Positions 19,708 to 52,679 of a stretch of DNA of 64,000 bases are shown here, piece by piece (the first letter of the stretch is position 1; each line of letters opens with the position of its first letter). This stretch comes from a virus. The position numbers were made by a program, and so were the translations under genes. The stretch covers positions 1 to 64,000 of the IMG/VR virus record IMGVR_UViG_3300038465_000055, one strand, 5' to 3'. The notes beneath the pieces were generated by a model, which saw only the letters and a list, made by a program, of their open reading frames with translations, was not told the origin of the DNA and ran no database searches.

Positions 19708-22110
19708 TTATTGCCTCGTGGCAACATCTAACTGCATGACCCCGACACCTCCATTGTATCCAGTGCCAAAATTATTAGCATTTTCTTCTGTGGCTGAAAC
19801 AAAGTGAAACCCAGAGACCGCTGGATAGTTGGCAATTGAGATTGGGCTCGCAAAAAAAGAATTTGCAGTAGCCGTTTCCATCAGAGCACGAGCATCAAAA
19901 CAAGTCGTTCCGTCAAGGCATGTACCTGTGACAGAACCAGACCCCGCCGAAGCGGATGTAAATGCCTGCACCTGATAGCTTGCCGTAAAACCATTCAGGG
20001 GAAGTCCAACGACAAACGATGCCCTGTTATTGACTGAGTTGTCGGCCGCACGGACCGCGCTCGCTCCGGATTGCAACCATACACTCACAGTGTCGGTGAC
20101 CGTCGTTTTGACGTCGACTTGGTTGTACATATTCCAGACACCGAACATCGCAGCGCCGCCACCGCCTGCAGCGCTACCCCAAACATAACTTATCGAACCA
20201 TTTGCAATGGCATACACGGTGCCGAGATACGTGGCTTGGTTCGCAGCGACCGAACCATAGTTCGTCGATCCGTTGAAGCAATTCGCCAGCGCATTCTTGT
20301 TTGTTGGATATGGCCGCGTGATCTGATCGATGACGGTGTAGCCGGTGCCGCGCGACGTATTCGATCCTCCGGTATCGGCCGCCCAGCCGCCGCCGCCGCC
20401 GCCAGCAGTTGACATCGCCAAGCAAATCCTGTTGGCGCCACCATGCACCCACCAAACGTCATAGACCTGAGATCCGACGACCTGACCTGCGCTCGCCGCT
20501 GCGACCATCGCATCGATAACCTCGCATGAGGCGACCGTGTCGATCAGATCAAGCGTGCCATTGAAATACGGGACTCCGCCGCCCACCGCGCAATCATATC
20601 GCAGCGTCGTCTGGTTCGCGCACGACGACCCGCCGCAAGACGTTGCGAGCATGACCGGGGTATTAGCGGCCAGCGTGATGCGACCCTGCGGCGCGATGAC
20701 GGCGCCCGCAACCGTGCATGTTCCGGTGCTTGTAATGCTGCACGTTCCAGAGACAGCTATTCCAGATCCCGCCGCGATAATAACGTTGGTCACCGTTCCA
20801 GTGCCGCCCGCCGTCAGCCAAGCCGGCACGCCGGTCGGCCCTTCGGAAAATACCTGCGTGCCGCTATTGTTACCGGCCAGCGTCGTCCAGATGGTGCCGT
20901 TCCAGAAAGCGAAGTCGCCAACTCGAGTCGGAACAGGCATCAATGCCGTGATCGCAGCCGGCGCCCCGCTCTGACCCGTACCGCCATTTGCGATCGGCGC
21001 AATACCCGTCACGCCTCCGTTGCCGCTGGCGCCTAGATTTATCGCCGACAGCCACGAACCCGAGATCGTCCCAGAGTTGATGGCCGAGCCCGCGATCGAT
21101 GGCGTACCGCCGAGCGCATAAGTTCCGGTGATCGTGCCTGTGATCGCCGGCCCGGTGCCAAACGTGACAGTCGAATTGAATATAGCGCCGCCTGTGACAG
21201 CCAGAAAAAAACCGCCGATGGTCGCGCCGCCCAAAGCCAGCGACGTTCCCGCTGCCACACCGAGCGACGGCGTCGTCAAGGCCATATTGGTGGCGGCGAT
21301 CCCGCTGGGTAGCGTTGCGGAGAATGACGGAACGTTCGATCCGTTCGTCACCAACACCGAATTAGCAGCGAGCGCTGCCGCCGTCATGGTTCCACCGTTC
21401 GTCGAATTGTACGGAACGCCAGTGCCGCCGCTTATGGTCGTGGTTCCATAGGTGATGCCGGTAGCTGGCGCCACGATCGAGCACGTGCTTCCGAGGGCGC
21501 ATGGGATGCCGTTCACGGTCGTGAGGGCAACCGCTCCATTCACATAGTAGTTTCCGCTGACATTGATGGTGCCCGCGCCGGTCAGCGTTCCCATCGTCGT
21601 GCCGACCGTTACGCTGCCGTCTTGCTCGACCCCAAACCTGTCCGTCAACGTCGCGCTGCCATTCGGCGTAACGCCAAAGCGCAAATAGGTTCCATTCTGG
21701 CCCACGCTCCAATTCTGTGCCGCGTAGGTTCTGATCGCCGCCTGCGGGCCGACCACTCCGGTTCCGTTATAGCCGAACGCATTCAACGAACAGACTTCAT
21801 CCGCGGACTGCAACGTTGTCGGCGCCGCTTCCGTGCCATCCCAGCGCACGCAACTATAGCGCGGTACGCTAGCGTAGGCGTCCAGCTCCGTCCTTACCGT
21901 CGTTCCAGCAGCTCCGACAATCTGCAAACCGCTGCCAGCCAAAAAAGCCGGCGTCGTCTGCGAGGCGTTTAGATTGATGATCTGGGGAGAAAGAAACGTG
22001 TTGATCGCGGTCGTGAATGCGCAGTTGACGCACGAAGGCGGACTTGGCTGCGCCGCTGCACCGACAACAGAAACAGCCAGAGCGAATAGTGCCGCGATAA
22101 AACTGCGCAT
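19708..22110 (-). CDS. Tail fibre/spike-like protein with N-terminal signal peptide
   Basis: MRSFIAALFALAVSVVGAAA leader; G/T-rich fibre repeats (PIANGGTG, GTGTVT, PQGRITL, GVWNMYNQ); 16 Cys, mostly in local pairs. Confidence 0.8.
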   Translation of the reverse strand: MRSFIAALFALAVSVVGAAAQPSPPSCVNCAFTTAINTFLSPQIINLNASQTTPAFLAGSGLQIVGAAGTTVRTELDAYASVPRYSCVRWDGTEAAPTTLQSADEVCSLNAFGYNGTGVVGPQAAIRTYAAQNWSVGQNGTYLRFGVTPNGSATLTDRFGVEQDGSVTVGTTMGTLTGAGTINVSGNYYVNGAVALTTVNGIPCALGSTCSIVAPATGITYGTTTISGGTGVPYNSTNGGTMTAAALAANSVLVTNGSNVPSFSATLPSGIAATNMALTTPSLGVAAGTSLALGGATIGGFFLAVTGGAIFNSTVTFGTGPAITGTITGTYALGGTPSIAGSAINSGTISGSWLSAINLGASGNGGVTGIAPIANGGTGQSGAPAAITALMPVPTRVGDFAFWNGTIWTTLAGNNSGTQVFSEGPTGVPAWLTAGGTGTVTNVIIAAGSGIAVSGTCSITSTGTCTVAGAVIAPQGRITLAANTPVMLATSCGGSSCANQTTLRYDCAVGGGVPYFNGTLDLIDTVASCEVIDAMVAAASAGQVVGSQVYDVWWVHGGANRICLAMSTAGGGGGGWAADTGGSNTSRGTGYTVIDQITRPYPTNKNALANCFNGSTNYGSVAANQATYLGTVYAIANGSISYVWGSAAGGGGAAMFGVWNMYNQVDVKTTVTDTVSVWLQSGASAVRAADNSVNNRASFVVGLPLNGFTASYQVQAFTSASAGSGSVTGTCLDGTTCFDARALMETATANSFFASPISIANYPAVSGFHFVSATEENANNFGTGYNGGVGVMQLDVATRQ

Positions 22111-29190: not shown

Positions 29191-29793
29191 TCAACCCTTC
29201 CATCGACGAAGGGCCGCCTCACTCATTCGTTTCCGAGTTTCCTCAGACCTCTTTCGGCCGACATTGATCGTGTTGCCTTTTTTGAAACAATTGTTCTCCG
29301 TCCTCGGTAGGGTATTGCCCACTCCTCCTCCTCCGCCGATCCTATTTGGCACCAATTCTCCAGATAGAAGCCTGCGAGTCATACGCTCGCTCAATACCCT
29401 CCTCGCTTCTGGGGAAGCGAATTGAGCCTTTGCTTTTCGACTAAGCTTGGCTCGAGTCTGCTCAGAAAAATTATGAGCACCACCACCGCCATCTGACCTA
29501 TTCCAAAGCGGCCCCTTTAATTTGTCAGCACGACCTATCTCATCGATCAAGCGGCGCTCGTTTTCGTAAGCCTCCTCTCTTGTGAGCCCACAAATTATCT
29601 TCTTGGGAACCACAGAAAGACCGCAGCCGATCGCATGAAGGATGCCAAGATTTTTTGAAGGGCTAATATTTTTCGCAAGCTCCCTAGCCGCATTTCTTAT
29701 GTGCATGTTCATGCGGTATCCGCTTCCCATTCCGATATATCTTGGGATGGGATCATCACCGACAAATAGGCCATAGACATAGAACTTGTTCAT
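29191..29793 (-). CDS. GIY-YIG-family homing endonuclease with NUMOD3-like tail
   Basis: FYVYGL..RYIGMG..R; LTREEAYENE; LWNRSDGG; GRKRSEETRKRMSEA. Confidence 0.85.
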   Translation of the reverse strand: MNKFYVYGLFVGDDPIPRYIGMGSGYRMNMHIRNAARELAKNISPSKNLGILHAIGCGLSVVPKKIICGLTREEAYENERRLIDEIGRADKLKGPLWNRSDGGGGAHNFSEQTRAKLSRKAKAQFASPEARRVLSERMTRRLLSGELVPNRIGGGGGVGNTLPRTENNCFKKGNTINVGRKRSEETRKRMSEAALRRWKG

Positions 29794-30281
29794 GGCGACA
29801 CTTCTATTTGATTGTTGGCGATACGGTACACCAGAGTCGAGTTGAAGTATCCAGCGGTCAGGCTGATGTTCTCGCTGGCGACGCCAAGCCTCGTCGCAGC
29901 TCCCGGATCGGCCATCAGCGGATAGGTGAATGTGTACCGGCCTGTGACATAGGCGAGCACCTGACCGTTGTAGGCGTCCGGCGTCGAGCCCGTGATCGTG
30001 AGCGCCACCGTACTGCCGATTCGGTATGGAATGGGATTCGCAAGCGTCCCTGTCACAAAACCATTGGCCCATGACAGCTCCGCAAGATTGGCCCCGTTCG
30101 GAGATCCCACCATTGCCTTGTTGACGATCAGCGTGCCGTCGAGACCTGCGATCGCGAGATAGTATCGCTGCGCCGCCATATTAAAGGTGACGGTCGCGTT
30201 GTAGACCTGACCGTCCAGCGTGGGCTGGAACGTATAGTTCGCGGTCGGTACCGGCGTGAAATCATAATAGGTGATGCTCAT
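29790..30281 (-). CDS. Baseplate plug-like protein with FCCH-like insert
   Basis: FQPTLDGQVYNATVTFNMAAQRYYL; NISLTAGYFNSTLVYR. Confidence 0.7.
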   Translation of the reverse strand: MSITYYDFTPVPTANYTFQPTLDGQVYNATVTFNMAAQRYYLAIAGLDGTLIVNKAMVGSPNGANLAELSWANGFVTGTLANPIPYRIGSTVALTITGSTPDAYNGQVLAYVTGRYTFTYPLMADPGAATRLGVASENISLTAGYFNSTLVYRIANNQIEVSP

Positions 30282-36837: not shown

Positions 36838-37284
36838 TTACGTGACCCATGCTCGAAGTGATGATTCGTACAATTCTGTATCAACAAACGACACCGGACG
36901 CGAGTTAGATCGACGTCCGCGCTTCTTCTTCCGCCCGCTCCGCTTCTTCCCCAAGGCACGGTCGATCGCTGCCTGCGTCGGCACGCCGGGATAGCCAAGG
37001 CTGTCCATTTCTCCGTTTGTGATGAATTCCTTCATGCCTTCTTCGATCTTCGAGGCGCCGCCCGCGAACACATCGATGGTTGCCGGGGCCCCCATCAGCA
37101 GACTTTCGAGCGCTCCGCGCGCGCCTTCCTCCATCGCCGTCGCCATGTCCGGCCCGTGAACCTGCGAATAGATTTCGAGGATATGATATTTGTCCTCAAG
37201 CCAGCCTGCGACGTCGCCGGTCGTCACCGTGCCCTTCTGGTCATAAGGCAGATCGTCAATGACTCCGAGATGAAGTACGGGCAT
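36838..37284 (-). CDS. Neck/tail-completion protein
   Basis: LHLGVIDDLPY..TTGDVAGWLEDKYH..GVPTQAA..SFVDTELYESSLRAWV. Confidence 0.75.
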   Translation of the reverse strand: MPVLHLGVIDDLPYDQKGTVTTGDVAGWLEDKYHILEIYSQVHGPDMATAMEEGARGALESLLMGAPATIDVFAGGASKIEEGMKEFITNGEMDSLGYPGVPTQAAIDRALGKKRSGRKKKRGRRSNSRPVSFVDTELYESSLRAWVT

Positions 37285-37298
37285 TTATCTCGCTTCCA

Positions 37299-40200
37299 TC
37301 AGTGACCGCTGTTGAAACTCGACGTGCCATTATAATTTTGCCAGAACGGCGAAGTGAGCGGGTTGCAGAACAGACTAGTACACGAACTAAACCCCCATTG
37401 TTGCGAGAGAAGAAAATTCAAAGACGAAGGAGACCCCGAATTAGGCATCAAACCAAAGGTGACTTGATTGATGTCGGTCCCCATGAATCCCTTGTAGTAA
37501 TACTCCCATGTCACGGCGAATGACGGATCATTCTTATACCCGGTAAAAACTGCGTCATTGAAAGCGTTGGCCGCTCCTGTACTCGACGGATCAGAGAACG
37601 TGATGCCTTCTCCCGCGTTCGTTCCCGTGGCATTGCCAGATAGAATCACATAGTTGCCGGTGCATGTTGTAGGGCATCCGCTGTTGATCGACGAAACCGT
37701 CAGCCCCGAAATATCGCCCGCGGCAACCGTCATCCCTGTGTAATAGCCAAGAGCAGTCGAGAGACTGTCGACGACGGTGTTTGTGTGAGTCGACCCGGTA
37801 ATTCCAACCGTAGTGCCGATCTGGATCGGAGGCACCGCCGCAGCGAAGGTAGCTGCCGCATAAGGATTAACTTCAATGTCGCCTTCGTACCACCGCATCA
37901 AAACCGGACCCATCCCAGAAGGTCGAGGATTGGCTGCCGTCCCGCAACTCTGTTGAGTGGAGCTGCTGTAGCTACAGGCAAGAGTTTGCCAGAGCTGAAG
38001 ATTAGTCTGGACCGTGGAATTGTTGCCTTGCGTAAAAGTAAATGGCGTCGATGTGTATATCAGAGAGTTTAGCGACAACGTACCGGTGCCGGGCGTGCCG
38101 CAATTTACATCGCTGCCGTTTTGGATTCCGGCAGTGAACCCTTTCATGGTGAAGTTCCACGGCGAAGTGGTCAGCGCCGCCCCCGCGGATGTTGTGGCTG
38201 CACTTGTGACGTAGAGACCGGCCCCACCGGTCGTGCCCGAGGTCTGGCTGACGATCGTGGTGGTGATGGTGGACGGAACGCCTGTGCCAGCAACCGCAGC
38301 ACCTATCGCAATGGTGCCCGTGACGCCGGTTACGGTGAGGTTGGTTCCGCTGCCAGTCCCCGTGAAGCTGGCTGTGCCGGTGATGGTGTCCGTCGTATAG
38401 ACTTGGTTTCCTGCTAAACCACTTGGAAGCGTTCCACCGGGCGATGTGAACAGGAAGAAGTTGCCATTCCCTCCCGGCTCGTATGACGATGCGCCTGTCC
38501 CCGTCGTGAACGTGGTGCCGCTGCAAGTAAGTGCTTGGGGTGCTCTGCGCGGATAAGTCCCCCTCAGGTCTTGGTCGATGAGCGATATGGCGGCGGCTTC
38601 GCTGCCGTTGATCCAGTCGTTCACGACAGGTTGGAAAAACCAAGCTGATGCTAGCCCGAATCCAGAGCCTCCGACGTCCGACCCGTTCGTGATGTTGTTG
38701 CCGCCAACATATGGCGCACCTCCGATCGTGTTGATGTCGTCGATGGGGCGGTTAGGATAAACATTTCGTCCTGCTACTGAACACCCGCTGGTAAACGTTC
38801 CGCCAAAATGTACGCAAAGTGGAGCGTTCGTTGCTGTGCTTAGAAGTGACCCGCCCAGAGCCAAGATATAATCGCTGGAAGAAAGGGCGCAGCAGAATTG
38901 CCCCATCATGGCGGCTTCGTAACGAGAGCGATTTGAGCCACTAAATACGGACGAAAATGCAAGCGCTGTGTCCGAAGCCAGCACCGCCATGTAGTGCGTA
39001 TAATCGAGCGGAGAGCCGTTGGTTATATTGAGCCAGTTCTCACGCTGGATCGCCAGCCGCCATGGTTGATACGCCGGATTCCAGACCTCATTGCCATCTT
39101 CAGTAAGCACCTTGAGCGGCGCTTTCATCAAACTAAGAATAAGGGAGGCCGTTCTGGTCTTGTAAGTGTTGGTGGCCGTTATCGGAAGATTCAGCCAGAA
39201 GTTCGCGTCGGTCTGATTGGCAAGATTGATGAAATACTCATACGGCGCCATGCCCGGCGAGACGCCGCCGCCCTGTTCGATGACCCCGCCTAAAATGGCA
39301 TCGTAAGCAAACGTGGAGTAGCCGGTGCCGAGCTGGTTGGAATTTATTCCACCACAGTTGTCGTTGTAGCCCTGTCCTTCGCAGTTCAAGATGAACGCTT
39401 GAGCGCCGCCGGCCTTCGTGGAAACAACGATTGCAAATGGACTTATGTAGCCTAGGCAACCGGAACAGGCATGGACAAACGCTGTGTTGAAGGTGACGTG
39501 GTAGCCATCACTTGAGATGTTAGTTATTGTCTGGACGCCACCAGCCTCGGTGGTGCCGCTCGTCAATCCATTGACATAGAGCACATTTCCGACAATGGCG
39601 GCGGACACGTTGCCCGCGTAAAGCGCCTGCGCCGCAACAGTCTGCGAAACGCTGACAGCATAAGTTCCTGTGCCACCGGCCCCCGTGCAAGCAGGCGCAC
39701 AAGCAGATGAATTGGTCGTGGAGTTTCCGACAATCGTGGTGTTGGCCGCAACCGACGTTCCGGAGATAGAAAAGACCGTGTCTCCGAGCAGTACGGAGGC
39801 GCTGCCGCCCCCGTAGCTGTTGAAGGCGCTGACGGTCATCGTCGTACCAGAAATGCTGGCCGTCGTCATCTGGCTGTGCGCGATCGACGCCGAAACGCAC
39901 GGACCGCCGCCGCAGTTGGTCGTGCTGTCTCCGACCGCGTTGACTAGAGTCCATCCCGGCGTCGGTCCTGTGCCGGGATTTCCCATCACGGTGTCGCCAT
40001 CAGCCCATGCCCCTAGGCTCTGGTCGTTGGCGCTGTTGTTCATGTCGTCAGAAGGCGCGCAGGTAAAAATATATGGCGCCTGTCCTGACGAGCCAGCCGT
40101 GAGCGGACACGTCGGCGTAGTATTGCCCGCTCCTCCGGAACGAGCGCTCGGCACATTACGGCTGGTGAATGTGAGATGGAGGTCGGTGATCTGAGCACGA

Positions 40201-41096
40201 TAACCAAACGTCGTCATCTTGGTAGTGTCGGAAGCGCTTGATCCCATATTTCGGAGCCAGCCGAAGCCAGCTCCCTTTATGGCTGCTACAAATTCAGGAA
40301 CGAAGAACGAGCCGGAAGCCCCGCTGGTTGACATCGCAAGCGCGTATTGGGAGCAATCATCGTTCGGCGCGCCGCCGTTATTGGTGCTCCGACAAAGTAT
40401 CCACTCGCCGCTGCCCGGCGCAAAAGCATAACCCGTCGGATAAAGAATGGAGAGACCGAAGCACTGCGACGTGCATTGAAACACTGCCGTGCCAGCCGTG
40501 CTGCCGTTGCACTTGAAATTCTGGTTGCTGCTGGTGAACGTGCCCGGTGTGCCGGAACCGCTGAGCGTCATTCCACCCGTGAAAGACGACACCACAAATG
40601 TCGGCGTGGTCGTATTGCCGAAAACTATCGACATGAACGGACGTGTCGCGGCGCACGACAGCGTATAGGTTGAGTTTAACCACAGACCATTAGTCTGCGA
40701 ACCAATCTGCTGCGTCAGCGTCGTAATCGGATATTGGCTACCATCGACGTCGATGGAAGTATTGTTGTTTGTTGCTTGGTTTCCCCTCAGGGCATTTGTG
40801 TAAGTGATCGGCGTAAGATCCGCGCCGACACTGAGCATTACTTGGGAAATGCCGGCGGGTGGCGATAAGGGCGCTGAACCATGACGATAGCCGACCGGCA
40901 GAAAGCGAGACTCACCTTGGCCGAAAAATTTAACGGCTCCCGACAACGAAGCCTTCTGCTCAATGATTAGATGCTGGATCTGAATCGAGTAGGCCAGAAG
41001 ATTATTGCGCTGCGGATTGACCGGCATCGCAAAGGAAGTCGTCGTCGCCAGTGCGACTACCACACCAGCCAGAGCTGATAAAAATCTTTTGAACAT
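37299..41096 (-). CDS. Large exported glycoside-hydrolase-like (clan GH-A-type) protein with inserted beta domains
   Basis: Signal peptide MFKRFLSALAGVVVALATTTSFA; WLRNMG, FINLANQTDANFWLNLP, EDGNEVWN, WYEG; about 28 Cys. Confidence 0.7.
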   Translation of the reverse strand: MFKRFLSALAGVVVALATTTSFAMPVNPQRNNLLAYSIQIQHLIIEQKASLSGAVKFFGQGESRFLPVGYRHGSAPLSPPAGISQVMLSVGADLTPITYTNALRGNQATNNNTSIDVDGSQYPITTLTQQIGSQTNGLWLNSTYTLSCAATRPFMSIVFGNTTTPTFVVSSFTGGMTLSGSGTPGTFTSSNQNFKCNGSTAGTAVFQCTSQCFGLSILYPTGYAFAPGSGEWILCRSTNNGGAPNDDCSQYALAMSTSGASGSFFVPEFVAAIKGAGFGWLRNMGSSASDTTKMTTFGYRAQITDLHLTFTSRNVPSARSGGAGNTTPTCPLTAGSSGQAPYIFTCAPSDDMNNSANDQSLGAWADGDTVMGNPGTGPTPGWTLVNAVGDSTTNCGGGPCVSASIAHSQMTTASISGTTMTVSAFNSYGGGSASVLLGDTVFSISGTSVAANTTIVGNSTTNSSACAPACTGAGGTGTYAVSVSQTVAAQALYAGNVSAAIVGNVLYVNGLTSGTTEAGGVQTITNISSDGYHVTFNTAFVHACSGCLGYISPFAIVVSTKAGGAQAFILNCEGQGYNDNCGGINSNQLGTGYSTFAYDAILGGVIEQGGGVSPGMAPYEYFINLANQTDANFWLNLPITATNTYKTRTASLILSLMKAPLKVLTEDGNEVWNPAYQPWRLAIQRENWLNITNGSPLDYTHYMAVLASDTALAFSSVFSGSNRSRYEAAMMGQFCCALSSSDYILALGGSLLSTATNAPLCVHFGGTFTSGCSVAGRNVYPNRPIDDINTIGGAPYVGGNNITNGSDVGGSGFGLASAWFFQPVVNDWINGSEAAAISLIDQDLRGTYPRRAPQALTCSGTTFTTGTGASSYEPGGNGNFFLFTSPGGTLPSGLAGNQVYTTDTITGTASFTGTGSGTNLTVTGVTGTIAIGAAVAGTGVPSTITTTIVSQTSGTTGGAGLYVTSAATTSAGAALTTSPWNFTMKGFTAGIQNGSDVNCGTPGTGTLSLNSLIYTSTPFTFTQGNNSTVQTNLQLWQTLACSYSSSTQQSCGTAANPRPSGMGPVLMRWYEGDIEVNPYAAATFAAAVPPIQIGTTVGITGSTHTNTVVDSLSTALGYYTGMTVAAGDISGLTVSSINSGCPTTCTGNYVILSGNATGTNAGEGITFSDPSSTGAANAFNDAVFTGYKNDPSFAVTWEYYYKGFMGTDINQVTFGLMPNSGSPSSLNFLLSQQWGFSSCTSLFCNPLTSPFWQNYNGTSSFNSGH

Positions 41097-41102
41097 TTTT
41101 TA

Positions 41103-41903
41103 TTAAGTTCCTGGATACCAGTATGCCCACGGATTTTCGGACCACTTCAACAGAGTGTTGAACGACAGCATGTTGCCAAAATTAAAACTATACATATACG
41201 CAGCGATGTGACCCGGAAACGCTGCCACTGCCGCAGTGTGGTTGCCTATGTTGAAGGTGCCGTCACCTGCCGAGGCTCCGACGCTGGCCAATGCAGCCTG
41301 TGTGGCCACTACTTTTCCCGTCGCCAGATTGCGAATGATTCCGTCAATTGAATTTGCACCGTTGGCATAGTTACTGAAGGCCGCAAAGTAAGGCACCCCA
41401 ACCGCAAGCGCATAGCCAGCAGTCGGAAACGCTCCGGCGGTTTCCGGAAATAAAACAGGAGCAGTACTTACAAGCAAAGAGTTGCTCGTATTTGCATTTG
41501 CCGTGCTGTGGAGAGCAGCCGTGACTGTTGGGATGCTGTCCATGACGAAAATGCAACCATACGTAAAACCACCGATCGGATTCCTTGCCGAGAAACCGGA
41601 AAACTCGATCTGATCCGTGCTGGCGCCGTTGAACTTGACGCTTGGACCGATCACCGGGTCTAGAAATCCAGTCGGAGCACCAATGATCGTTCCCGGTTTG
41701 CCACCTAGAAGGTTTGTGAAATTCCCGCCTAAATTGGCCACCGCCGATATCCACGGCTGTCCAGAAACAGGATGACTCTGATTCATCCCCGGAGCCACCC
41801 CAGCCGGAAACGCAAACGGCGGCCTTTGAGCTGCAAACAGTTTGCGCGACGGCAACAGGAGGGCTGGGGCAGCAACTTGGATAAGACGACGGCGCGACAG
41901 CAT
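41103..41903 (-). CDS. LamG/concanavalin-like protein with twin-arginine-type leader
   Basis: MLSRRRLIQVAAPALLLP; FTYGCIF, FNIGN..FPGHIAAY; ends ENPWAYW. Confidence 0.7.
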   Translation of the reverse strand: MLSRRRLIQVAAPALLLPSRKLFAAQRPPFAFPAGVAPGMNQSHPVSGQPWISAVANLGGNFTNLLGGKPGTIIGAPTGFLDPVIGPSVKFNGASTDQIEFSGFSARNPIGGFTYGCIFVMDSIPTVTAALHSTANANTSNSLLVSTAPVLFPETAGAFPTAGYALAVGVPYFAAFSNYANGANSIDGIIRNLATGKVVATQAALASVGASAGDGTFNIGNHTAAVAAFPGHIAAYMYSFNFGNMLSFNTLLKWSENPWAYWYPGT

Positions 41904-42548
41904 TTAGTTTTGTCCTGCAATCGGAGCTAACTTTATCAAATTTCCGGTCCCGCCCAGCGCAGCGCCACAGTTATTTTGGGTCATCACCTTGAACTGAAGT
42001 GCAGGAACGTTAATCGGCCCCGGCGCTTTATAGGTGTTGGTGCTGATCGCAGCAGTGGGAAGAAAAATTATAGCATCTGGAGAGCGGACCATTTGCGCTG
42101 CTGTGGCAGTCTCGAACGTTGTTCCGTCTCCGGTTTGAAGAAACCAGATCGAGATGTTGCCGCCCGCCGTGCACGTCGCGGTGGCGCCAGAGGTGAAGAA
42201 GATTTCACCGAGTTGTGCGCCGCCTGTGTTTGAATTGTTGAACAGTCCAGAGGTGCCACCAACCGAACTGACGGCAACCGCACCATTGGCTAGCGCGTTC
42301 AATTCTATCGATTCCAGCGTCAGCAGCGCCGAGTAAAGACCATTGTTCGACGAGCCGAGATACCATTTGTGCGGCCCTGCATTCGGCGCGCAGTTTCCGT
42401 CATCTCCGGTTTGCGTGCTCATACCGACCGAGGACGGCACGTTGTTGTTGATCGAGATCGGATTGGTGCACGCCGCCAGCGCTGGCGCGGCGAACGCGAT
42501 CAGCCAAAGCACGACTGCTGTTAGTGGTGCTGCGAGACGCTTGATCAT
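41904..42548 (-). CDS. Exported beta-sandwich protein
   Basis: MIKRLAAPLTAVVLWLIAFAAPALA leader; 4 Cys. Confidence 0.75.
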   Translation of the reverse strand: MIKRLAAPLTAVVLWLIAFAAPALAACTNPISINNNVPSSVGMSTQTGDDGNCAPNAGPHKWYLGSSNNGLYSALLTLESIELNALANGAVAVSSVGGTSGLFNNSNTGGAQLGEIFFTSGATATCTAGGNISIWFLQTGDGTTFETATAAQMVRSPDAIIFLPTAAISTNTYKAPGPINVPALQFKVMTQNNCGAALGGTGNLIKLAPIAGQN

Positions 42549-42560
42549 AGTGATCGCTCC

Positions 42561-42746
42561 TTACCGGAAGATGAGAGAGAAATATTGACTGTTGCAGGCT
42601 TGCGAAAAATCCAGCTCGTTCGAGCACGAGTTCCCGCCACCACTGCCGGCGCCGAGCAGCATGATGCTTGCCGCGCGCGACTGATCGCCGCGAACCGAGC
42701 ACGACGCGATCGCGATGAGAACGAGAATGATAATGCGCTTCTTCAC
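42561..42746 (-). CDS. Small exported/lipoprotein-like peptide ending LDFSQACNSQYFSLIFR
   Basis: GTG start with GAGGAG; MKKRIIILVLIAIAS-C lipobox-like. Confidence 0.7.
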   Translation of the reverse strand: MKKRIIILVLIAIASCSVRGDQSRAASIMLLGAGSGGGNSCSNELDFSQACNSQYFSLIFR

Positions 42747-42757
42747 GTATCCACTCC

Positions 42758-45700
42758 TCAGAATTGCATGTAGCTGATCGAACCGGCGACAGCCACCGCT
42801 GCCGTTGTAATGGCGCACAGCGCGTTTCCTGACGGCACCTTCAAGATCGTCCCCACACCGCCGCCTTTCGTAAGACCCGGATTGGACGTGCTCAGAGAAT
42901 ATGCCCCGCTAAGTGTGCCCTGCCCTGTAGCGCAAGCCGTTCCAGTTCCGTAAATCCATTGGAACGTGTCCACACCCGCGGCCATGAAATCTTCCGACGT
43001 GACATAGATCGACGTCGAGCCCGACAGCGCGACGATCTGGGTTGTAGTCGCCGTCGAGATGCTGATCGGCGCAGACAGGCTGTCCTGCGACAAAGTCTGG
43101 CGCCCCACGCCAGTTCCGGTCTGACCTTGGCCGGTTGCCGTAGCCGTTCCAGCCGTCTGGGCATTGTTGGTCTGCACCACAACGCTGGGCGCCGAGCCCG
43201 CCAGCGTCGCGGTATCGGTGGCAACGGTGACTCGAGGAACTGTGGCTCCCTGCGCTCCGGTACCGGTGGCCACCGCGGCGTTGCCGACCATCAGGTTGGC
43301 AAAGAGACCGTTCGTGGCACTCAGGACCGCGTTGCCTTGCAGGAGGTTGGAGAAGATGCCGTTGGTCGCTGACAAGGCCGAGCCGCCTTGCGTGAGACCA
43401 GCCGTCCACGTGCCCGATTGCGTGGCTGCAACCGTGCCTGTGATCGTGGTCGACGTCAGCGTCACGGCAAGACCGGAGACACCCGCCGCAACCAGCAATT
43501 CACCGCGCGAACTGAATAGCAGCGCAGCCTGTTGCGTGTTCGTCATTGTCGGCTGCGCCGAAAGATACTGACCGCCGACCGTGAGCGCGCTGGTCGACGC
43601 CGCCGTCGCCGCATTGAGCGGACCCGTAACCTGCGGGATCGGCCCCTTGATATCGTCGTCAAGCTGGCCGAGACAGCCGATGATGGTATTCCCTGCAACC
43701 GAGCAGGTATGCGCCGAGGTGATCGTTCCCTCGACGACGTTGGCGCCGTTGGCGAGCGAGCCCGCTGCGAACGCACCGGACGCGAACGCGCCCGACGCAT
43801 AGGCGCCCGAAGCGATCGAGCCCGACGCATAGGCGCCGCTCGCCACCGCACCGGACACCATCGTGACAGCACCGCCCCCACCGCCCACCTTGACGTTGAC
43901 TAGCAGGTTGCCCGCGGCATCCATCTGGAACGGCGAGAAGTTCCCGGACGTGATCGTGGCCGGCGTCGTGTTGAACTGGCCACCGACTAGAACTGAGCTG
44001 AATGTGCCCGTCGCGTTCTGGCCAGCGAAATCGAGCAGCGCGCCGGCATTGCCGACGATCCGATCGCTCCACGTGCCAGATTGCGTGACTGGAATGGCGC
44101 TCTGGTTGCTGGCGATCGCAACCGAGACGCTATTGGCCATCGTGACTTGGCCGTTTGGATTGACGCTATTCGGCGAGATCGATACGACGATCGCCGTGTC
44201 GGTAGCCAACGGCGGCGTGCTCCCGAGCTTGATTGCCGCCCCGACGACGTTCTGACCAGCCGCGCCCGTGACTGTACCGCCGAACACGACCGGGGGATTG
44301 GCGTTCGCAACGCCCACTGCCGTGGGACCAAAGACCGCCCCCCCGCCGCCGCCGCCGCCGGTGCATCCAGAGATACAAGCGACATTCAGGGCATTCGTGG
44401 TCGAGGCTATGACGTTCCCGGAGCCGTCGACGATCTGGGTTTTTGCCGCGCCGCTGGTTTGCAAGGTGGCCGTGGCCGCGCCCGTGGGAAGGCTGATAGT
44501 TCCTGTGATGTTGTTGATGTTGTTCGTGGCGCCGGTGAGCTGGACGCCAAAGGTACCCGTTCCGACGACGGTCGCATTGAGGGCCGCCGCCGTGGCCTGC
44601 GTCACAGCGAACGAGCTGTTGCCGATCGAACCGCCGGCCTGAAATGGCGTTCCAAGCGCTGCTATGATAGTCGCCTGATTGGCCGCCGTGCCGGCTCCCC
44701 CCAAGGTGCCAAGGTTGACCGTAGGCGTTGCCGCGAAGGCAGGGAGCGTCCCCAAGATGCCAAAGGCCGTATTGGCGATGCTGCCACCGGCTTGGAACGG
44801 CGTGCCCAGCGCCGTCTGGATCGCCGCCAGCGTGGTCTGTGTCGCGACCCCCGCGATGGTCCCCAGATTGACGGTTGGCGTCGCAGCAAACGCAGGCAGC
44901 GTGCCCGTGATGCCAAACCCGGTATTGGTGATCGAGCCGATCGCGTTGGTGCCCGCAGCGAGCCCAATCGACCAAGCGCCAGACTGCGCGGCCGGGAATG
45001 TGCCGCCAGCGCCGGTAACAAGCAGCGCCGAGCCGTTCGAACCGGTATTGGCGAGAGAGACCTGAAGCGGGGCCGCCGATACGCCGACTTCCGCTCCCGC
45101 CGCGTTGCGCAGGTTCATCATGACAGCGCGGAATTCCGTCAACTGCACCATGCCCTGATCGCCAGCCGTCAGGGGATTTGCCGTCACCGTCGTCTGATAG
45201 AAACCGCCCGCGCCAGCGAACAGCGAAGCGCCGGCCGCGAACAGCGCACCATCCGCCGTGCTCACGCCCGAACCCGAGCAGTTCGAGCACTGGATATTCA
45301 GGTTGCCGCCGGTACCGGTGAGCGGAACAAGATTGCCGCCCTGCAACATACCGACGTAGGTGGCCGAGCCCGGCGCCAGCGTGGCCACCGCTCCAACGGA
45401 CGCATTCGGAGCCGCGCCGCAGCCCGTGCCGCAATTGAATGTCGGGGTGGCCGCAAATGCCGGGAGCGTGCCGCCGAGACTGACAGTGCCGCTGACCGGT
45501 TGCGTTACCGCAGATCCGTCGACCATGAGGCCATTGGCGGTCGCGACCAATCCCGTCAGGACGCCGCCGACGCTGGCGCCGAGATAGGTGGCAGAGGCCG
45601 GCACCGCGATCGAGGTGAGCGCAACCGACGCATTCGATCCGTTGCAACCGCTGACGCAATTGACATTCGGCGTGCCCGCAACCGAGACAGGAAGGGTGAC

Positions 45701-46126
45701 CGAAGCCTTGATGCTTACCCATTCTCCATTGGTGACGTCGCCGAGCTGCGGCTGAAAATTACCCGACACATCCTTGAAGCCGCCCGGCGTGCCGAAATTT
45801 CCGATCGGGCTTGCGAAGGTGGCCGAGACGCCAGTGCCGCTGCAATTCGAGCATGTGATGCTGCCGGTGACTGCAAACGTAGCTCCCGCGCCGGGCGAGA
45901 CAAAGATCGGATTGGCCGACACACCCATCGGGTTGCCAGTCTGATCCTGAATGACGTTAGCCGCGCATATGACGCTGTTCGAGCAATTGAACCCATGCAG
46001 TTGGCGCGGGATCTTGTAGGCGTCGAGGAACGAATAATTAGGGAACGTGGCCTGTTGAGCCAGAGCTGGGGAAAGGCCAACGAGCGACAGCGACCAGATC
46101 GCCAATGCCAAGAGAGCTTTTTTCAT
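42758..46126 (-). CDS. Large exported fibre-like protein (repeat-rich shaft, C-terminal beta-sandwich)
   Basis: MKKALLALAIWSLSLVGLSPALA leader; GTLPAFAATPT x3, ALGTPFQAGGSI x2, SGAYA pentapeptides; 16 Cys. Confidence 0.85.
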   Translation of the reverse strand: MKKALLALAIWSLSLVGLSPALAQQATFPNYSFLDAYKIPRQLHGFNCSNSVICAANVIQDQTGNPMGVSANPIFVSPGAGATFAVTGSITCSNCSGTGVSATFASPIGNFGTPGGFKDVSGNFQPQLGDVTNGEWVSIKASVTLPVSVAGTPNVNCVSGCNGSNASVALTSIAVPASATYLGASVGGVLTGLVATANGLMVDGSAVTQPVSGTVSLGGTLPAFAATPTFNCGTGCGAAPNASVGAVATLAPGSATYVGMLQGGNLVPLTGTGGNLNIQCSNCSGSGVSTADGALFAAGASLFAGAGGFYQTTVTANPLTAGDQGMVQLTEFRAVMMNLRNAAGAEVGVSAAPLQVSLANTGSNGSALLVTGAGGTFPAAQSGAWSIGLAAGTNAIGSITNTGFGITGTLPAFAATPTVNLGTIAGVATQTTLAAIQTALGTPFQAGGSIANTAFGILGTLPAFAATPTVNLGTLGGAGTAANQATIIAALGTPFQAGGSIGNSSFAVTQATAAALNATVVGTGTFGVQLTGATNNINNITGTISLPTGAATATLQTSGAAKTQIVDGSGNVIASTTNALNVACISGCTGGGGGGGAVFGPTAVGVANANPPVVFGGTVTGAAGQNVVGAAIKLGSTPPLATDTAIVVSISPNSVNPNGQVTMANSVSVAIASNQSAIPVTQSGTWSDRIVGNAGALLDFAGQNATGTFSSVLVGGQFNTTPATITSGNFSPFQMDAAGNLLVNVKVGGGGGAVTMVSGAVASGAYASGSIASGAYASGAFASGAFAAGSLANGANVVEGTITSAHTCSVAGNTIIGCLGQLDDDIKGPIPQVTGPLNAATAASTSALTVGGQYLSAQPTMTNTQQAALLFSSRGELLVAAGVSGLAVTLTSTTITGTVAATQSGTWTAGLTQGGSALSATNGIFSNLLQGNAVLSATNGLFANLMVGNAAVATGTGAQGATVPRVTVATDTATLAGSAPSVVVQTNNAQTAGTATATGQGQTGTGVGRQTLSQDSLSAPISISTATTTQIVALSGSTSIYVTSEDFMAAGVDTFQWIYGTGTACATGQGTLSGAYSLSTSNPGLTKGGGVGTILKVPSGNALCAITTAAVAVAGSISYMQF
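43751..43860 (-). repeat. 15-bp/pentapeptide tandem repeat (SGAVA-SGAYA-SGSIA-SGAYA-SGAFA-SGAFA-AGSLA)
   Basis: Seen in translation and in DNA (CCCGACGCATAGGCG repeated). Confidence 0.85.
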
Positions 46127-46151
46127 CGCTCGAATTCCCCAAAGGAAAGTG

Positions 46152-46592
46152 TCAGCCGCCGATCAGCGGTATGTACTGCGAATTTTCTGCATCCGAAAAA
46201 TCAAGGTCAGGATCTTCTTCGCCTCGTATCCGCAGGTAAACGATTTCCACGAAGATACGGCCCTGCGCCGTCGTCGCATTGTTCATCAGAGCATACACTG
46301 ATCCGATTGCTCCGACCGACAACCAGACGGAAACAAACGGATTATTTATTGCCTTGTTACCTATCACCAAACCTTCATCCGGAGGTTCGATCTGATCCCA
46401 CGTCGAAGTCACGATCGTGTCGCCCGCCGCCGCCGGTGGCACAGCAAGCCGTATCGAATAATCGATACCGAAGTCGAGTTTTTCGATCGAATTCTTTGCT
46501 GGCCATTCAAGCAGTTGGCGCCCGCGACCGGGGGTAACGATTCGCGAAAATCCTGCCGGCAGAATAACCCGCTGTGAATTAACGCCGACCAT
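46152..46592 (-). CDS. Phage fibre-adaptor-like protein ending LDFSDAENSQYIPLIGG
   Basis: WPAK..EKLDFGIDYS..GDTIVTSTW..VSVWLSVG..TTAQGR. Confidence 0.7.
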   Translation of the reverse strand: MVGVNSQRVILPAGFSRIVTPGRGRQLLEWPAKNSIEKLDFGIDYSIRLAVPPAAAGDTIVTSTWDQIEPPDEGLVIGNKAINNPFVSVWLSVGAIGSVYALMNNATTAQGRIFVEIVYLRIRGEEDPDLDFSDAENSQYIPLIGG

Positions 46593-46605
46593 GACCGTTC
46601 ACGCC

Positions 46606-46920
46606 CTATTTATAATATGACACGTTGAGGACAGCGGTTGCCGACTGCTGGATGAATTGCAGCGCGGCCAGATTGGCGAGGGGAATCGGCGCAGCTCCAG
46701 CCGTGATCTGCATCCCGATCGTCGCAGTTGGCGCTGTCCCGTCATCGCGATAATTCACATTTGCGCCCGTGCACATCACCAAGGCATAGGTCGCGCCCGC
46801 CGGCACTGTAAACGCCGCCGCCACTGTCAATGCCGTGATCTGCTGGAATCCCAACGGCTTGCCTGACGGGATGATCGTGACCGGCGTCGACGCACCAGCC
46901 TGCACAAGTTGGTTTGCCAT
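46606..46920 (-). CDS. Small beta-sandwich virion protein
   Basis: PLGFQQI..VPAGATYAL..VNYRDDGTAPTATIGM..LNVSYY. Confidence 0.75.
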   Translation of the reverse strand: MANQLVQAGASTPVTIIPSGKPLGFQQITALTVAAAFTVPAGATYALVMCTGANVNYRDDGTAPTATIGMQITAGAAPIPLANLAALQFIQQSATAVLNVSYYK

Positions 46921-46933
46921 TATCTATTTTCCC

Positions 46934-47452
46934 TCATGTGATCCCGAACAGAGTCGGTCCCCACTTCTGTGCGATCGACAGATAGCGTCGGCCCCATGGC
47001 GTCTTCATGTTTTGCAGATCCGACAGCGAGAGCTGCGCGAGCGAATCAGGAACGACCATCGACTCGCTTGTTCCCTCATCGCTCGCGGACGATATCACGC
47101 CTGAGACGAAACCGTTGACGTTGAATTTTCTTCGCAGATACGCAAAGACAGGCAGCCTGTCCTTACCGATGGTCCCATAAAACGGCGGCGGATTGCCGAA
47201 CGCATCACCGATGTCAGGCGCATAATTGATCAGGATATCCGCTGCCAGATTGTAGACCGCCTGATGATAAAGGAACGGCACAGCACACCTGATGAAGCCG
47301 TTCACCGTTTCCCGCGCCGAGTGAAAAGCAAAGAACACCACCGGCGAGGTTGGTGGCAACTGTGCCGGAGTGATCTGCATAAAACCGTAGACGAATTGAA
47401 GGAATCCATCGACGGTCGGCGGGGGAACGATGAACGGCGGATCATTATCCAT
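46934..47452 (-). CDS. Head-tail adaptor (DUF4054-like)
   Basis: AVYNLAADILI..GVISSASDEGTS..KTPWGRRYLSIAQ. Confidence 0.8.
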   Translation of the reverse strand: MDNDPPFIVPPPTVDGFLQFVYGFMQITPAQLPPTSPVVFFAFHSARETVNGFIRCAVPFLYHQAVYNLAADILINYAPDIGDAFGNPPPFYGTIGKDRLPVFAYLRRKFNVNGFVSGVISSASDEGTSESMVVPDSLAQLSLSDLQNMKTPWGRRYLSIAQKWGPTLFGIT

Positions 47453-47706
47453 CAGCGCGGTCCCTCGAACGACTCGAGAAACAGGCCCTCTCGATAGGCG
47501 CCATTGTGCAGGACATAATGCCGCGCGCCCCACTTGATGACGTCTGGAGGCCCGCCGGGCGGCAGCCTGATCGTTGTGACGCGCTCCCCTGACTTGGTGA
47601 ACAACTGCACGTCGCCTCTATTTTCAGGACGCTTCATTTCCTGCTGTGGCATGTCAAATCCCGTGATGTTCCAAACCTCGCCTTTTTCATCTGCCCACTG
47701 GCCCAC
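47452..47706 (-). CDS. Hypothetical protein
   Basis: 84 aa; TGATG-coupled. Confidence 0.55.
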   Translation of the reverse strand: MGQWADEKGEVWNITGFDMPQQEMKRPENRGDVQLFTKSGERVTTIRLPPGGPPDVIKWGARHYVLHNGAYREGLFLESFEGPR

Positions 47707-50675: not shown

Positions 50676-52679
50676 TTAGTGTTGGGTCGGCATGCGGGTA
50701 CCGATGAAGTTGACGTTGCGGTGTGGGCGCGACATCTGCGCGAAGATCGTGCCCTTGCCGACGAACCGTGTGATCTTGTGGCCGCCCGGTGCGGTTTCCT
50801 TGATCTCGCGATGCTGGAATGGCTGCGCATCTGTCGGGTCCATCGCCGCCTTGAAGGCGTCTGCCCGAATGCCGTCGAGCGCGATCGTGAAGCCCTTGGC
50901 ATCGGCAGCGATCACCGCCAGATCGACATCCTTCCACGTTTTTGAGTGGGGCTGAAGCTTGCGGGCAAGCCGAATGTTGTAGGCGACAATATCCTCGCCG
51001 GACATCGGCGGATCTGCGCTGTCATTCATGGCGCGCAGCACGACGTCGGCTTTCGCCTGTGCATCTGCGAAGGCATCGCGATCGGCCTGCGTCATCTTGC
51101 GCGGCTGCATCGAGGTGACCATCGCCTGAAGCTTTTCGAATTCAGAGCGAGGAACGCTGTCAGCCTTGGCTGCATCAGCCTTCTCTTTCTCTTTTTCCTT
51201 GTCCTCGGCATCCTTCTTGGCAGCATCAGCCTTTTCTTTTTCCTTCTCTTTTTCCTCAGCGTCCTTGCGCTTCTTGTCGGCTGCCGTCTCCTCGGCTCCC
51301 TCGCCGTCTTTCTTGGCGCCGTCCTTCTTGGCCGCGTCTTTCTTCTTCTCCTCCTCCTCCTTTTCGGAATCGGACTTGGCGGCGTCCTTTTTCTTTTCTT
51401 CTTCCTTCTCTGCGTCGCGCTTCGCCGAGTCGGACTTCACCGCGTCCATCACAGCATCGTACTTCGAATCCATTTTCTGACAGTGCGAGGCCATGTCCTG
51501 ACGGAGACCATCCGCCATCTTCTTGAACGAATCCATGATGGCGTCCATCACACCATTTGCGTGCGAACCAACACCGGCCTCATCAGCAGCCTTCTTATCG
51601 GCATCCGCCTTCTTCTCTGCTTCGGTTTTTTCGGCCACGCTGGAATCTCCTCTGATGATGTGATCGCTGCTAATTCCGGCGGGCTCCCCGCCTTTGTCCC
51701 AAACACCCTGCTGGCAGATCGCGACATGATCTAGCAAACCGGGGTCGCCTTCAATGAGTAACAAGCTCTTGTCGGGAAGTGCTACGGACTGATTTACACT
51801 GAGTTTCGTGAAAACAACAGTGGGACTTGTGGACAGCACGCCTTTTTCCATCTCGGCGTTGGCCTCGTCGTCATAGATCTTGGCCACCGCCCAGACTTCA
51901 TCTTCGTCGATGTAGGGCACAAAAACGGTGCCGACGATCCGCTTGGCGAACTCTTTTGACGTCAGCTTCGCCTTAGCCGGGTGCAGCCAGATAACCGGCA
52001 GCCCGTTGCATCGATCGAGGAAATCCTGATTGAGATAGTGCTCTGGCGGCCGATAGACGTGCTCGTCATAGACGATCGTCTTGCCGTCGTCGTCCTTTCG
52101 CTTCTGCGCCTTGCGGAATGACCGGCCCGTACCCGTGATCCGCATCGTCCACATCGTCATGTTGATGTAGCGCTGCGGCGACATTAGCTCGCCCGCGGCC
52201 ATCGCGCGCGCGATCCCCAGCTCATTCATCGTCAGCTTGTCGAGCGCGATCTGACAGCCGGGATGCAGCGGTTGCGGCGCGTCGCCGATCGACGACCACA
52301 CGAAGCCGTCATGCTCCTCATTCAGCTTAGGTGTGAACTGGACCGGGACGCGGACAAGGAACGTCGTGAAATCAACCATAGGCGGAGGCGGCAGCTCGAC
52401 CACGTCAGGAACAAGCGACGCCGGCTTTTCAGCTACATCCTCCAACACCGGCTTGATGCGCCTTGCGTGCAGACGCAGCGCCGCTGGCTTTACCTTGTAT
52501 CCGGTCTCCTCCTCGACCTCGCGGATTGCCGCACCATCGGCGTCCTCGCCATCCTCGATTTTTCCACCGGGAAACGCCCAACGGCCGATCTGGTCGCCGT
52601 CAGCGCGGCGCAGGAATAAGGCTTTGCCCTCGGGATCGAGGAACAGGATGCCGGCGGCGCGAATCACATTATCGGTCAT
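50676..52679 (-). CDS. Nudix hydrolase - prohead protease (DUF2213-like) - scaffold fusion
   Basis: Nudix box GGKIEDGEDADGAAIREVEEETGY; RCNGLPVIWLHP, STSP, LDHVAIC..GVWDK; K/E/D/A-rich scaffold. Confidence 0.85.
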   Translation of the reverse strand: MTDNVIRAAGILFLDPEGKALFLRRADGDQIGRWAFPGGKIEDGEDADGAAIREVEEETGYKVKPAALRLHARRIKPVLEDVAEKPASLVPDVVELPPPPMVDFTTFLVRVPVQFTPKLNEEHDGFVWSSIGDAPQPLHPGCQIALDKLTMNELGIARAMAAGELMSPQRYINMTMWTMRITGTGRSFRKAQKRKDDDGKTIVYDEHVYRPPEHYLNQDFLDRCNGLPVIWLHPAKAKLTSKEFAKRIVGTVFVPYIDEDEVWAVAKIYDDEANAEMEKGVLSTSPTVVFTKLSVNQSVALPDKSLLLIEGDPGLLDHVAICQQGVWDKGGEPAGISSDHIIRGDSSVAEKTEAEKKADADKKAADEAGVGSHANGVMDAIMDSFKKMADGLRQDMASHCQKMDSKYDAVMDAVKSDSAKRDAEKEEEKKKDAAKSDSEKEEEEKKKDAAKKDGAKKDGEGAEETAADKKRKDAEEKEKEKEKADAAKKDAEDKEKEKEKADAAKADSVPRSEFEKLQAMVTSMQPRKMTQADRDAFADAQAKADVVLRAMNDSADPPMSGEDIVAYNIRLARKLQPHSKTWKDVDLAVIAADAKGFTIALDGIRADAFKAAMDPTDAQPFQHREIKETAPGGHKITRFVGKGTIFAQMSRPHRNVNFIGTRMPTQH

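Follow-up and report, generated by a model that had tools for sequence, protein, structure and literature searches.

Leader-bearing, cysteine-paired fibre-like and glycanase-like proteins encoded in the neck module of a contractile-tailed phage

In the textbook account, tailed phages assemble entirely in the cytoplasm and their receptor-binding proteins are taken to be leaderless. What, then, should be made of a phage that carries, among its neck genes, a run of large fibre-like and enzyme-like proteins that begin with export signals? The block in question (37299-46920, about 9.6 kb) belongs to IMG/VR virus record IMGVR_UViG_3300038465_000055, and by "the window" we mean the whole stretch that we analysed, which is positions 1 to 64,000 of that record. 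An initial annotation, made from the DNA alone, proposed that the five leader-bearing proteins of the block are exported, fold oxidatively in the periplasm, and are then loaded as appendages onto virions built in the cytoplasm. Overall, this interpretation is partly supported. The phenomenon itself is real, conserved, and undescribed for tailed phages in the literature that we searched: we found no description of leader-bearing virion fibres of tailed phages, and the nearest cases were XepA, to which we return below, and, in a 2026 preprint, sortase substrates of huge phages.

All seven open reading frames (ORFs) of the block lie on the minus strand, with intergenic gaps of 0-25 nucleotides (nt), and the co-orientation, tight packing, and lengths given by the initial annotation were all correct (Table 1). 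So were the N-termini that it quoted: the first two proteins (g104 and g146) lack a leader and the next five (P0001, g61, g214, g266, and P0002) have export-type N-termini. We called leaders with a simple heuristic for hydropathy and charge, together with AxA-type cleavage sites and conservation in homologues. The heuristic flagged 6 of the 90 greedy ORFs in the window, and none of its recognisable capsid, portal, terminase, sheath, tube, or baseplate proteins. We added g61 and a protein encoded elsewhere in the window (g800) by eye, which gives eight leader-bearing proteins, three of them outside the block. That five of the eight are consecutive among about 75 genes is not expected by chance (p ~2e-4). 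P0001, g214, P0002, and g800 satisfy the hydropathy and charge rule and have AxA-type sites. The lipobox of g61 (..LIAIAS/C, where the slash marks the predicted cleavage site) fits [LVI][ASTVI][GAS]C, as a pattern match only; this small gene starts with GTG, with GGAG 7 nt upstream. The leader of g266 has S-R-R-R-L-I-Q (compare the Tat motif S/T-R-R-x-F-L-K), a weakly hydrophobic core that contains proline, and R-K before LFA/A, and we found no homologues in which its conservation could be checked. (Neither g266 nor g146 has close relatives in IMG/VR or in a word-indexed protein search.) The predicted routes are Sec for P0001, g214, and P0002 and lipoprotein export for g61; g266 is probably exported by the twin-arginine translocation (Tat) system.

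The leaders are kept in homologues. Relatives of P0001 occur at 17 IMG/VR loci, and its highly conserved core (residues 255-400) is common to at least 111 proteins; a leader was flagged in 99 of these 111, and most of the remaining 12 also bear a leader on inspection. The C-terminal 766 residues of P0002 match at least 471 proteins. Most of the full-length members of this family have Sec leaders, some have canonical Tat leaders (P0030, L006, and L011, with motifs such as SRREFVK and SRRSFLL), and a few have none. Across about 100 homologues, the n/h/c architecture of the leader and the AxA-type sites are retained despite sequence divergence. Furthermore, leaderless relatives start at the predicted cleavage point: the L014 fibre begins M-ADNITVKDASG, and its leader-bearing homologue in L005 reads ANA/ADNAVTVTNG. 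The initial annotation had allowed that the true starts might lie downstream of the leaders, and we found no internal start with a Shine-Dalgarno sequence behind any of them. In particular, a dual-start, leaderless isoform of P0002 from Met24, just after the cleavage site, was ruled out because there is no Shine-Dalgarno sequence there. Many members of the P0002 family (P0015-P0063; L002 14783-18180) have an aromatic-x-H/R-G motif (AWIHG, AGLIHR, or ARFPRG) right after the predicted cleavage site. Because this motif is conserved directly after the site, it suggests that the free mature N-terminus of these proteins is functional.

The leader-bearing proteins also differ from the leaderless ones in their cysteines. 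P0001 has 16, arranged as eight sequential close pairs that are 3-39 residues apart, with 38-301 residues between pairs; P0002 has 28 and g800 has 16. (The initial annotation had counted 16 in P0001 and about 28 in P0002, mostly in close pairs, and both counts are exact.) Mature g214 has 4 cysteines, g61 has 2 besides the lipid-bearing one, and g266 has 1. By comparison, the leaderless sheath, baseplate J, and 440-amino-acid (aa) fibre have 1, 1, and 2, within the range first reported. Cysteines per 100 aa average 0.42 over sixteen leaderless structural proteins and 1.88 over the large leader-bearing ones. In the P0001 family, the mature cysteine count is even in 97 of the 99 leader-flagged proteins (binomial p ~8e-27), and the sole clear full-length leaderless member of the core family, P0267, has a single cysteine. 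In the P0002 family, the count is even in 20 of 24 leader-bearing members (p ~8e-4).

Matched pairs of homologues show the same difference. The C-terminal part of g800 shares 29% identity with the tail spike of Pseudanabaena phage Pam5, which is leaderless and free of cysteines, and the N-terminal part of g800 shares 34% identity with a 309-aa protein that has no leader and 1 cysteine (L027; Manatee Spring Caudoviricetes MW202748, deposited as Myoviridae sp.). Likewise, the leaderless g104, with 1 cysteine, is 37% identical to a 127-aa leader-bearing protein with 2 mature cysteines at the end of the cassette in L002. More broadly, leaderless fibres and spikes (L014, 308 aa; L008, 597 aa; P0267; and the Pam5 spike) share repeats, the core, or the N-terminal start with the exported forms and adjoin connector or tail genes, as the window's proteins do; however, they have no leader and 0-1 cysteines, whereas the window's proteins have a cleavable leader and 4-28 paired cysteines. 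The even parity across families and the cysteine-poor leaderless relatives thus lend in-silico support to the oxidative folding that was first proposed. We think it very probable that the leader-bearing products are exported and fold oxidatively in the periplasm, and that the Sec-type products are built for local disulfides, which are predicted bonds, formed there. Judging from its leader and cysteines, g800 is another case of the same phenomenon, at the tail-fibre locus.

The folds point to polysaccharide as the target. A model of P0002 residues 500-1265 (mean predicted local distance difference test, pLDDT, 76) contains a (beta/alpha)8 barrel. The top 50 matches to this barrel in VIA-align were all (beta/alpha)8 glycosidase-type proteins (Z 8.8-11.7 over about 195-265 residues), and almost all were glycoside hydrolases (GH) of the clan GH-A type (GH51, GH53, GH44, GH79, and others). 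In a 43-member alignment of the P0002 family, N669-E670 and E1071 are at least 90% conserved, and they lie after strand 4 (model 164-168) and after strand 7 (model 567-570), which are the positions of the clan's catalytic pair (acid/base and nucleophile, respectively). This suggests that P0002 is a clan GH-A-type glycoside hydrolase, with the barrel, the N-E after strand 4, and the Glu after strand 7 that are shared by the clan (GH51, GH53, GH44, GH79, GH39, GH26, GH5) and by virion-borne depolymerases. Unlike these enzymes, P0002 has large insertions, a cysteine-rich N-terminal half of 480 residues, a leader, and no match to a Pfam or CAZy-type family. Indeed, no Pfam family matched any of the 43 members, and by sequence P0002 falls in no named GH family despite its GH-A-like fold. 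Foldseek against PDB and BFVD gave no significant match for the barrel (the BFVD match covers only a small domain of about 74 residues that is common to virion proteins), and the ESM Atlas gave no usable match for P0002. Residues 909-976 are rich in Gly and Thr and are 65-76% identical in otherwise unrelated phage proteins, including DUF3383 sheath-like proteins and the sheath of L002; this insert looks like a recently mobile decoration domain.

The monomer model of P0001 is poor overall (pLDDT 48), with no confident fold for residues 24-1010, as would be expected of an intertwined fibre. The C-terminal jelly-roll (residues 1015-1122) is modelled well (pLDDT about 90), and the rest of the protein consists of Gly/Ala/Thr-rich fibre repeats in common with leaderless phage fibres. 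The best structural matches to the tip are YomS (Z 8.5) and XepA (Z 8.1), with a root-mean-square deviation of about 3 A over 94-98 residues, which is borderline; other viral and carbohydrate-binding jelly-rolls follow. P0001 is probably a long, oligomeric fibre with a jelly-roll tip. We also considered whether its C-terminal ..YMQF is a signal of the outer-membrane protein (OMP) or autotransporter type, and ruled this out, as the homologues end in Q, Y, or R. The jelly-roll tip of P0001 and the clan GH-A fold of P0002 bear out the fibre-type and glycanase-type nature first ascribed to these products, and from sequence and models together we are confident that the Sec products are polysaccharide-directed parts: the fibre P0001, the glycanase P0002, and small beta proteins.

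How did these genes come to lie in a neck module? The source record is 74.7 kb long and is rated 100% complete by CheckV. By its gene content, the phage is a myovirus with a contractile tail: PHROG matches in the genome include the terminase, portal, major head protein, sheath, baseplate hub, wedge (J), and a leaderless tail fibre, and its capsid protein shares 52-55% identity with the counterparts in Pantoea phage PdC23, Klebsiella phage Chronis, and Yersinia vB_YenM phages. We found no tRNA genes in the record, and PHROGs gave no annotatable lysis cassette in the genome. The genes on either side of the block had been labelled a head-tail adaptor and a neck gene; their positions fit these labels, but by profile both belong to PHROGs of unknown function. 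The homologues of these two genes are directly adjacent to each other in PdC23 and in three uncultured relatives (L028, L029, and L030), that is, in every relative examined, and we therefore read the seven-gene block as an insertion between two neck genes. Within the block, the coding strand has no promoter-like site, and the several terminator-like matches are weak, none of them convincing. Given this and the short gaps, the block is expected to be expressed late, together with the virion genes. We read the block as a mobile accessory element within the late structural operon. Among GenBank phages, neither the DNA of the cassette nor P0002 has a match, and P0001 and g800 have only short domain matches. 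Neither the five leader-bearing proteins nor their cassette neighbours in other loci have a match in Pfam or PHROGs. Relatives of the cassette proteins are present on viral contigs from many metagenomes, as well as in metagenome-assembled genomes labelled Alphaproteobacteria, Acetobacteraceae, Roseiarcus, and Candidatus Sulfotelmatobacter.

The block contains a clue as to how an exported fibre could be held. g146 and g61 share the same C-terminal motif (LDFSxAxNSQY), which we refer to as the LDFS tail or socket. A pattern scan found this motif in 27 IMG/VR loci (L038-L064), always 15-21 residues from a C-terminus. LDFS tails without flanking cysteines are a portable C-terminal module on leaderless virion proteins: head-completion proteins (PF05521), tail-tube proteins (PF18906), Gp77-like proteins, and Ig-like decoration proteins, the last label resting on weak Ig/cadherin and Hoc-like matches. 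The next gene encodes a fibre. After a cysteine-free socket, this fibre is leaderless, starts MAxx(V/I)KDAxG, and had a leader in 0 of 12 cases; after a socket with flanking cysteines, the next gene had a leader in 7 of 11 cases (Fisher p 0.0013). The cysteine-flanked sockets sit on small proteins that have their own leader, and the flanking pair occurs only when the carrier has a leader. The tail and the downstream fibre thus seem normally to be in one compartment, either both cytoplasmic or both exported, as would a site and its ligand, and for this reason the LDFS tail appears to mark a fibre docking site.

The block has one pair of each of two kinds. g61 followed by g214 is fully exported: by its sequence, g61 is the exported version of the socket, and the mature N-terminus of g214 is similar to the start of exported fibres behind cysteine-flanked sockets elsewhere (L064). 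g146 followed by P0001 is a hybrid, with a leaderless socket before an exported fibre. The hybrid recurs in L002, a different myovirus lineage, where an LDFS-tailed phrog_1912 "head protein" precedes a leader-bearing fibre that is 55% identical to P0001, likewise between head genes and the sheath gene. g146 had been described as fibre-adaptor-like, and it matches the Pfam family of Gp77 fibre-tail adaptors (PF23148) at 57-58 bits, above the curated cut-off of 27, over positions 1-83 of the 84 in the profile. Compared with Gp77 of the Ralstonia podophage GP4, which it matches over the full domain, g146 lies in the neck module of a myovirus and has the LDFS tail as an extra.

We propose the following. 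The exported parts would remain in the periplasm, because no outer-membrane export component is encoded, and would reach virions or the outside only when the holin or lysis breaches the envelope. Attachment would be organised by the portable socket, into which the fibre from the next gene would plug, as synteny suggests. With the inner membrane open, g146 on completed particles would capture P0001, to give a disulfide-hardened neck fibre. The g61-g214 pair, g266, and P0002 would instead stay anchored in the envelope or free, as lectins and enzymes that lysis releases to act on surface polysaccharide. Capture of P0001 by virions is favoured by its being a fibre, by the presence of a Gp77-like adaptor, and by the hybrid pairs; of the five exported proteins, it is the only one with such indirect support, which comes from the LDFS tail of g146. 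Nevertheless, we hold this split of destinations only tentatively, at slightly below an even chance, and the explanation as a whole, from export and folding to the split, is likewise somewhat short of even. Its boldest form, in which phages of soil and freshwater diderms use two-compartment assembly, with periplasm-hardened fibres that snap onto finished virions via the LDFS socket seconds after the holin fires, is a speculation that we would back with still less assurance.

Several observations weigh against capture. What points to the binding of a fibre by a socket is only the order of the genes. Co-export of the LDFS socket is the rule in most phages, on a mature peptide of about 40 residues that has no virion-binding domain, which implies that exported fibres are usually not hung on virions through the socket. 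Four other cassette-bearing phage records, one of them a complete genome, have no Gp77-like domain. The mature N-terminus of P0001 is a diverged form of the usual fibre start, and g146 could in truth be paired with the leaderless g104, whose gene is the next one upstream. Envelope-bound or released proteins are favoured by the lipoprotein anchor on g61. The block is accessory and mobile and is absent from relatives. Finally, we found no precedent for post-lysis assembly of tailed-phage parts.

The strongest alternative is that none of the exported proteins joins the virion and that they form a late periplasmic accessory set, similar to XepA, which acts at or after lysis. Such proteins could cut or bind capsule, extracellular polysaccharide, or lipopolysaccharide, destroy receptors on debris, or aid escape from the matrix, and the tail of g146 would then serve a leaderless partner such as g104. 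XepA, from the Bacillus subtilis prophage PBSX, is encoded between tail-fibre and lysis genes and is exported, yet it is absent from PBSX particles (PMC6834076). XepA and its SPbeta counterpart YomS (PDB 6i56 / 6i5o) have the C2-like beta-sandwich that best matches the C-terminal domain of P0001; in XepA the matching part is the C-terminal domain. Homologous cassettes lie at module ends in other phages, before the terminase gene (L004) or at the junction of fibre and lysis genes (L022 and Synechococcus phage Yong-M4-211). Relatives make virions without the block, sockets are normally exported along with their fibres, and the phage already has an ordinary leaderless baseplate fibre. On the other hand, a free fibre that only binds would compete with progeny virions for receptors. 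There are also two cases of a socket on a leaderless virion protein directly before a leader-bearing fibre, and in L002 the g104 homologue is itself exported, which leaves that socket without an obvious leaderless partner. The likeness to XepA and YomS is borderline (Z 8.1-8.5), in a range where a common jelly-roll arrangement may be all that is shared, and homology is not established. Furthermore, XepA comes from a monoderm host, is a pentameric, two-disc protein of 30 kDa, and has neither fibre repeats nor paired cysteines, whereas the P0001 domain forms the tip of a long cysteine-paired fibre, the setting is of the diderm type (lipobox, Tat), and a glycanase and an adaptor are encoded alongside. 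We regard this alternative as a serious one, although we would not bet on it.

The full model of the initial annotation, in which all five exported proteins are virion appendages that are loaded via the two leaderless adaptors when the holin opens the membrane, seems improbable. It does share the socket evidence and the Gp77-like adaptor with the split that we prefer, the block is inside the neck module and would be co-transcribed with neck genes, and the domains are of kinds found in receptor-binding proteins and depolymerases, with small domains in P0002 that are common to virion proteins. However, as g61 is a predicted lipoprotein, its partner g214 should be tethered to the membrane rather than bound to the virion. 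There is just one leaderless socket for five exported proteins, we found no docking element on P0002 or g266, and the cassette is missing from relatives and is at non-neck positions in other phages.

Phages do encode exported envelope proteins among their tail genes, such as the morons Lom and Bor of lambda and Llp of T5, and the leaders and the lipoprotein anchor could be read in the same way: the proteins would be made for the cell, as adhesins, for surface remodelling, or for superinfection exclusion, and be displayed on the envelope, perhaps with lysogenic conversion. The initial annotation had named a phage-encoded host-surface adhesin as its alternative. This reading is very unlikely, as the block has no promoter or terminator of its own and is tightly coupled to late virion genes, the complete record has no tyrosine integrase, the block encodes no outer-membrane translocation component, and an OMP-type signal is lacking, since members of the P0001 family do not consistently end in an aromatic residue. 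We give equally little credence to the idea that the leaders are non-functional, with hydrophobic N-termini that serve as assembly or membrane segments on cytoplasmic proteins: the CxxC and Cx3C spacings do resemble metal sites and could in principle be metal ligands instead of disulfides, and the fibres of some phages bind metal ions, but the conserved leader architecture, the exchange of Sec for Tat leaders within one family, the leaderless homologues that begin exactly at the cleavage site, the even parity and cysteine-poor leaderless relatives, and the restriction of cysteine-flanked LDFS tails to leader-bearing carriers all argue otherwise.

Other late phage proteins are known to leave the cytoplasm. 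The Rz/Rz1 spanins of lambda and the endolysins with signal peptides or signal-anchor-release (SAR) sequences are late proteins that are exported by Sec or Lol, and spanins need periplasmic disulfides (review PMC6116005). Those are lysis effectors; the proteins of the block are unlike them in sequence and fold and have domain types of host recognition.

The P0001 and P0002 families are large and dark (at least 111 and at least 471 members), are made up of fibre and glycanase modules, and are almost always exported and cysteine-paired. If the proteins are free or bound to the envelope, then much late coding capacity is a periplasmic arsenal whose members annotation pipelines for host range and depolymerases now mistake for parts of the virion. 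If, instead, some of them are loaded once the holin has fired, then there is a new assembly step, by which fibres for harsh environments could naturally be hardened through oxidation. The socket rule offers a docking code that is concrete and can be tested. A possible laboratory model is provided by cultured Synechococcus phages that have related genes with leaders. Two of these, Ssp-JY42 (L026) and Yong-M4-211 (L031; host PCC 7002, a tractable strain), encode a leader-bearing protein of 138 aa that is homologous to the P0001 tip (44% identity) and, next to it, a leader-bearing protein of 786 aa with 10 cysteines; both genes lie between fibre and holin/endolysin genes. We found no proteome of a related cultured phage.

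Table 1. The block, its flanking genes, and g800, in window coordinates (a slash marks the predicted cleavage site)
Feature	Position	Strand	Description
Upstream flank gene	46934..47533	-	Conserved head-tail joining gene; phrog_6356 (PHROG of unknown function)
g104	46606..46920	-	104 aa; leaderless small beta protein; 1 Cys
g146	46152..46592	-	146 aa; leaderless, Cys-free
g146, Gp77 domain	46233-46496	-	Predicted fibre-tail adaptor domain
g146, LDFS tail	46155-46205	-	C-terminal (..LDFSDAENSQYIPLIGG)
P0001	42758..46126	-	1122 aa; fibre-like
P0001, leader	46058-46126	-	Sec type, residues 1-23; predicted cleavage ALA/QQ
P0001, core	44927-45364	-	Highly conserved
P0001, tip	42761-43084	-	C-terminal jelly-roll
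g61	42561..42746	-	61 aa; lipobox-type leader (IAS/C)
g61, LDFS tail	42561-42650	-	Cys-flanked (C..LDFSQAC NSQYF..)
g214	41904..42548	-	214 aa; Sec leader (ALA/AC); 4 mature Cys
g266	41103..41903	-	266 aa; twin-arginine-like leader; 1 Cys
P0002	37299..41096	-	1265 aa; Sec leader, residues 1-23 (SFA/M); 28 Cys; Cys-rich N-terminal half
P0002, barrel	37302-39299	-	Clan GH-A-like (beta/alpha)8, from about residue 600; N669-E670 and E1071 conserved
P0002, inserted mobile domain	38169-38372	-	68 aa
Downstream flank gene	36838..37284	-	Conserved neck-region gene; phrog_6560 (PHROG of unknown function)
g800	19708..22110	-	800 aa from MRSFIAAL..; Sec-type leader; 16 Cys; directly downstream of leaderless tail-fibre genes

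The long ORF of g800 has a TTG upstream of the MRSFIAAL start. Elsewhere in the window, a 293-aa ORF with 7 cysteines in the baseplate module (29191-30072, minus strand) matches the homing-endonuclease PHROG phrog_314 and is probably a mobile endonuclease insertion. In the head module, a 667-aa protein (50676-52679, minus strand) combines an N-terminal NUDIX-like stretch with a region that matches head-maturation protease profiles, as in relatives of PdC23. The two other leader-bearing proteins outside the block, of 268 and 270 aa (15447-16253 and 16705-17517, minus strand), have textbook Sec leaders, no cysteines, and no family match, and they may belong to a lysis or envelope module that has yet to be recognised.

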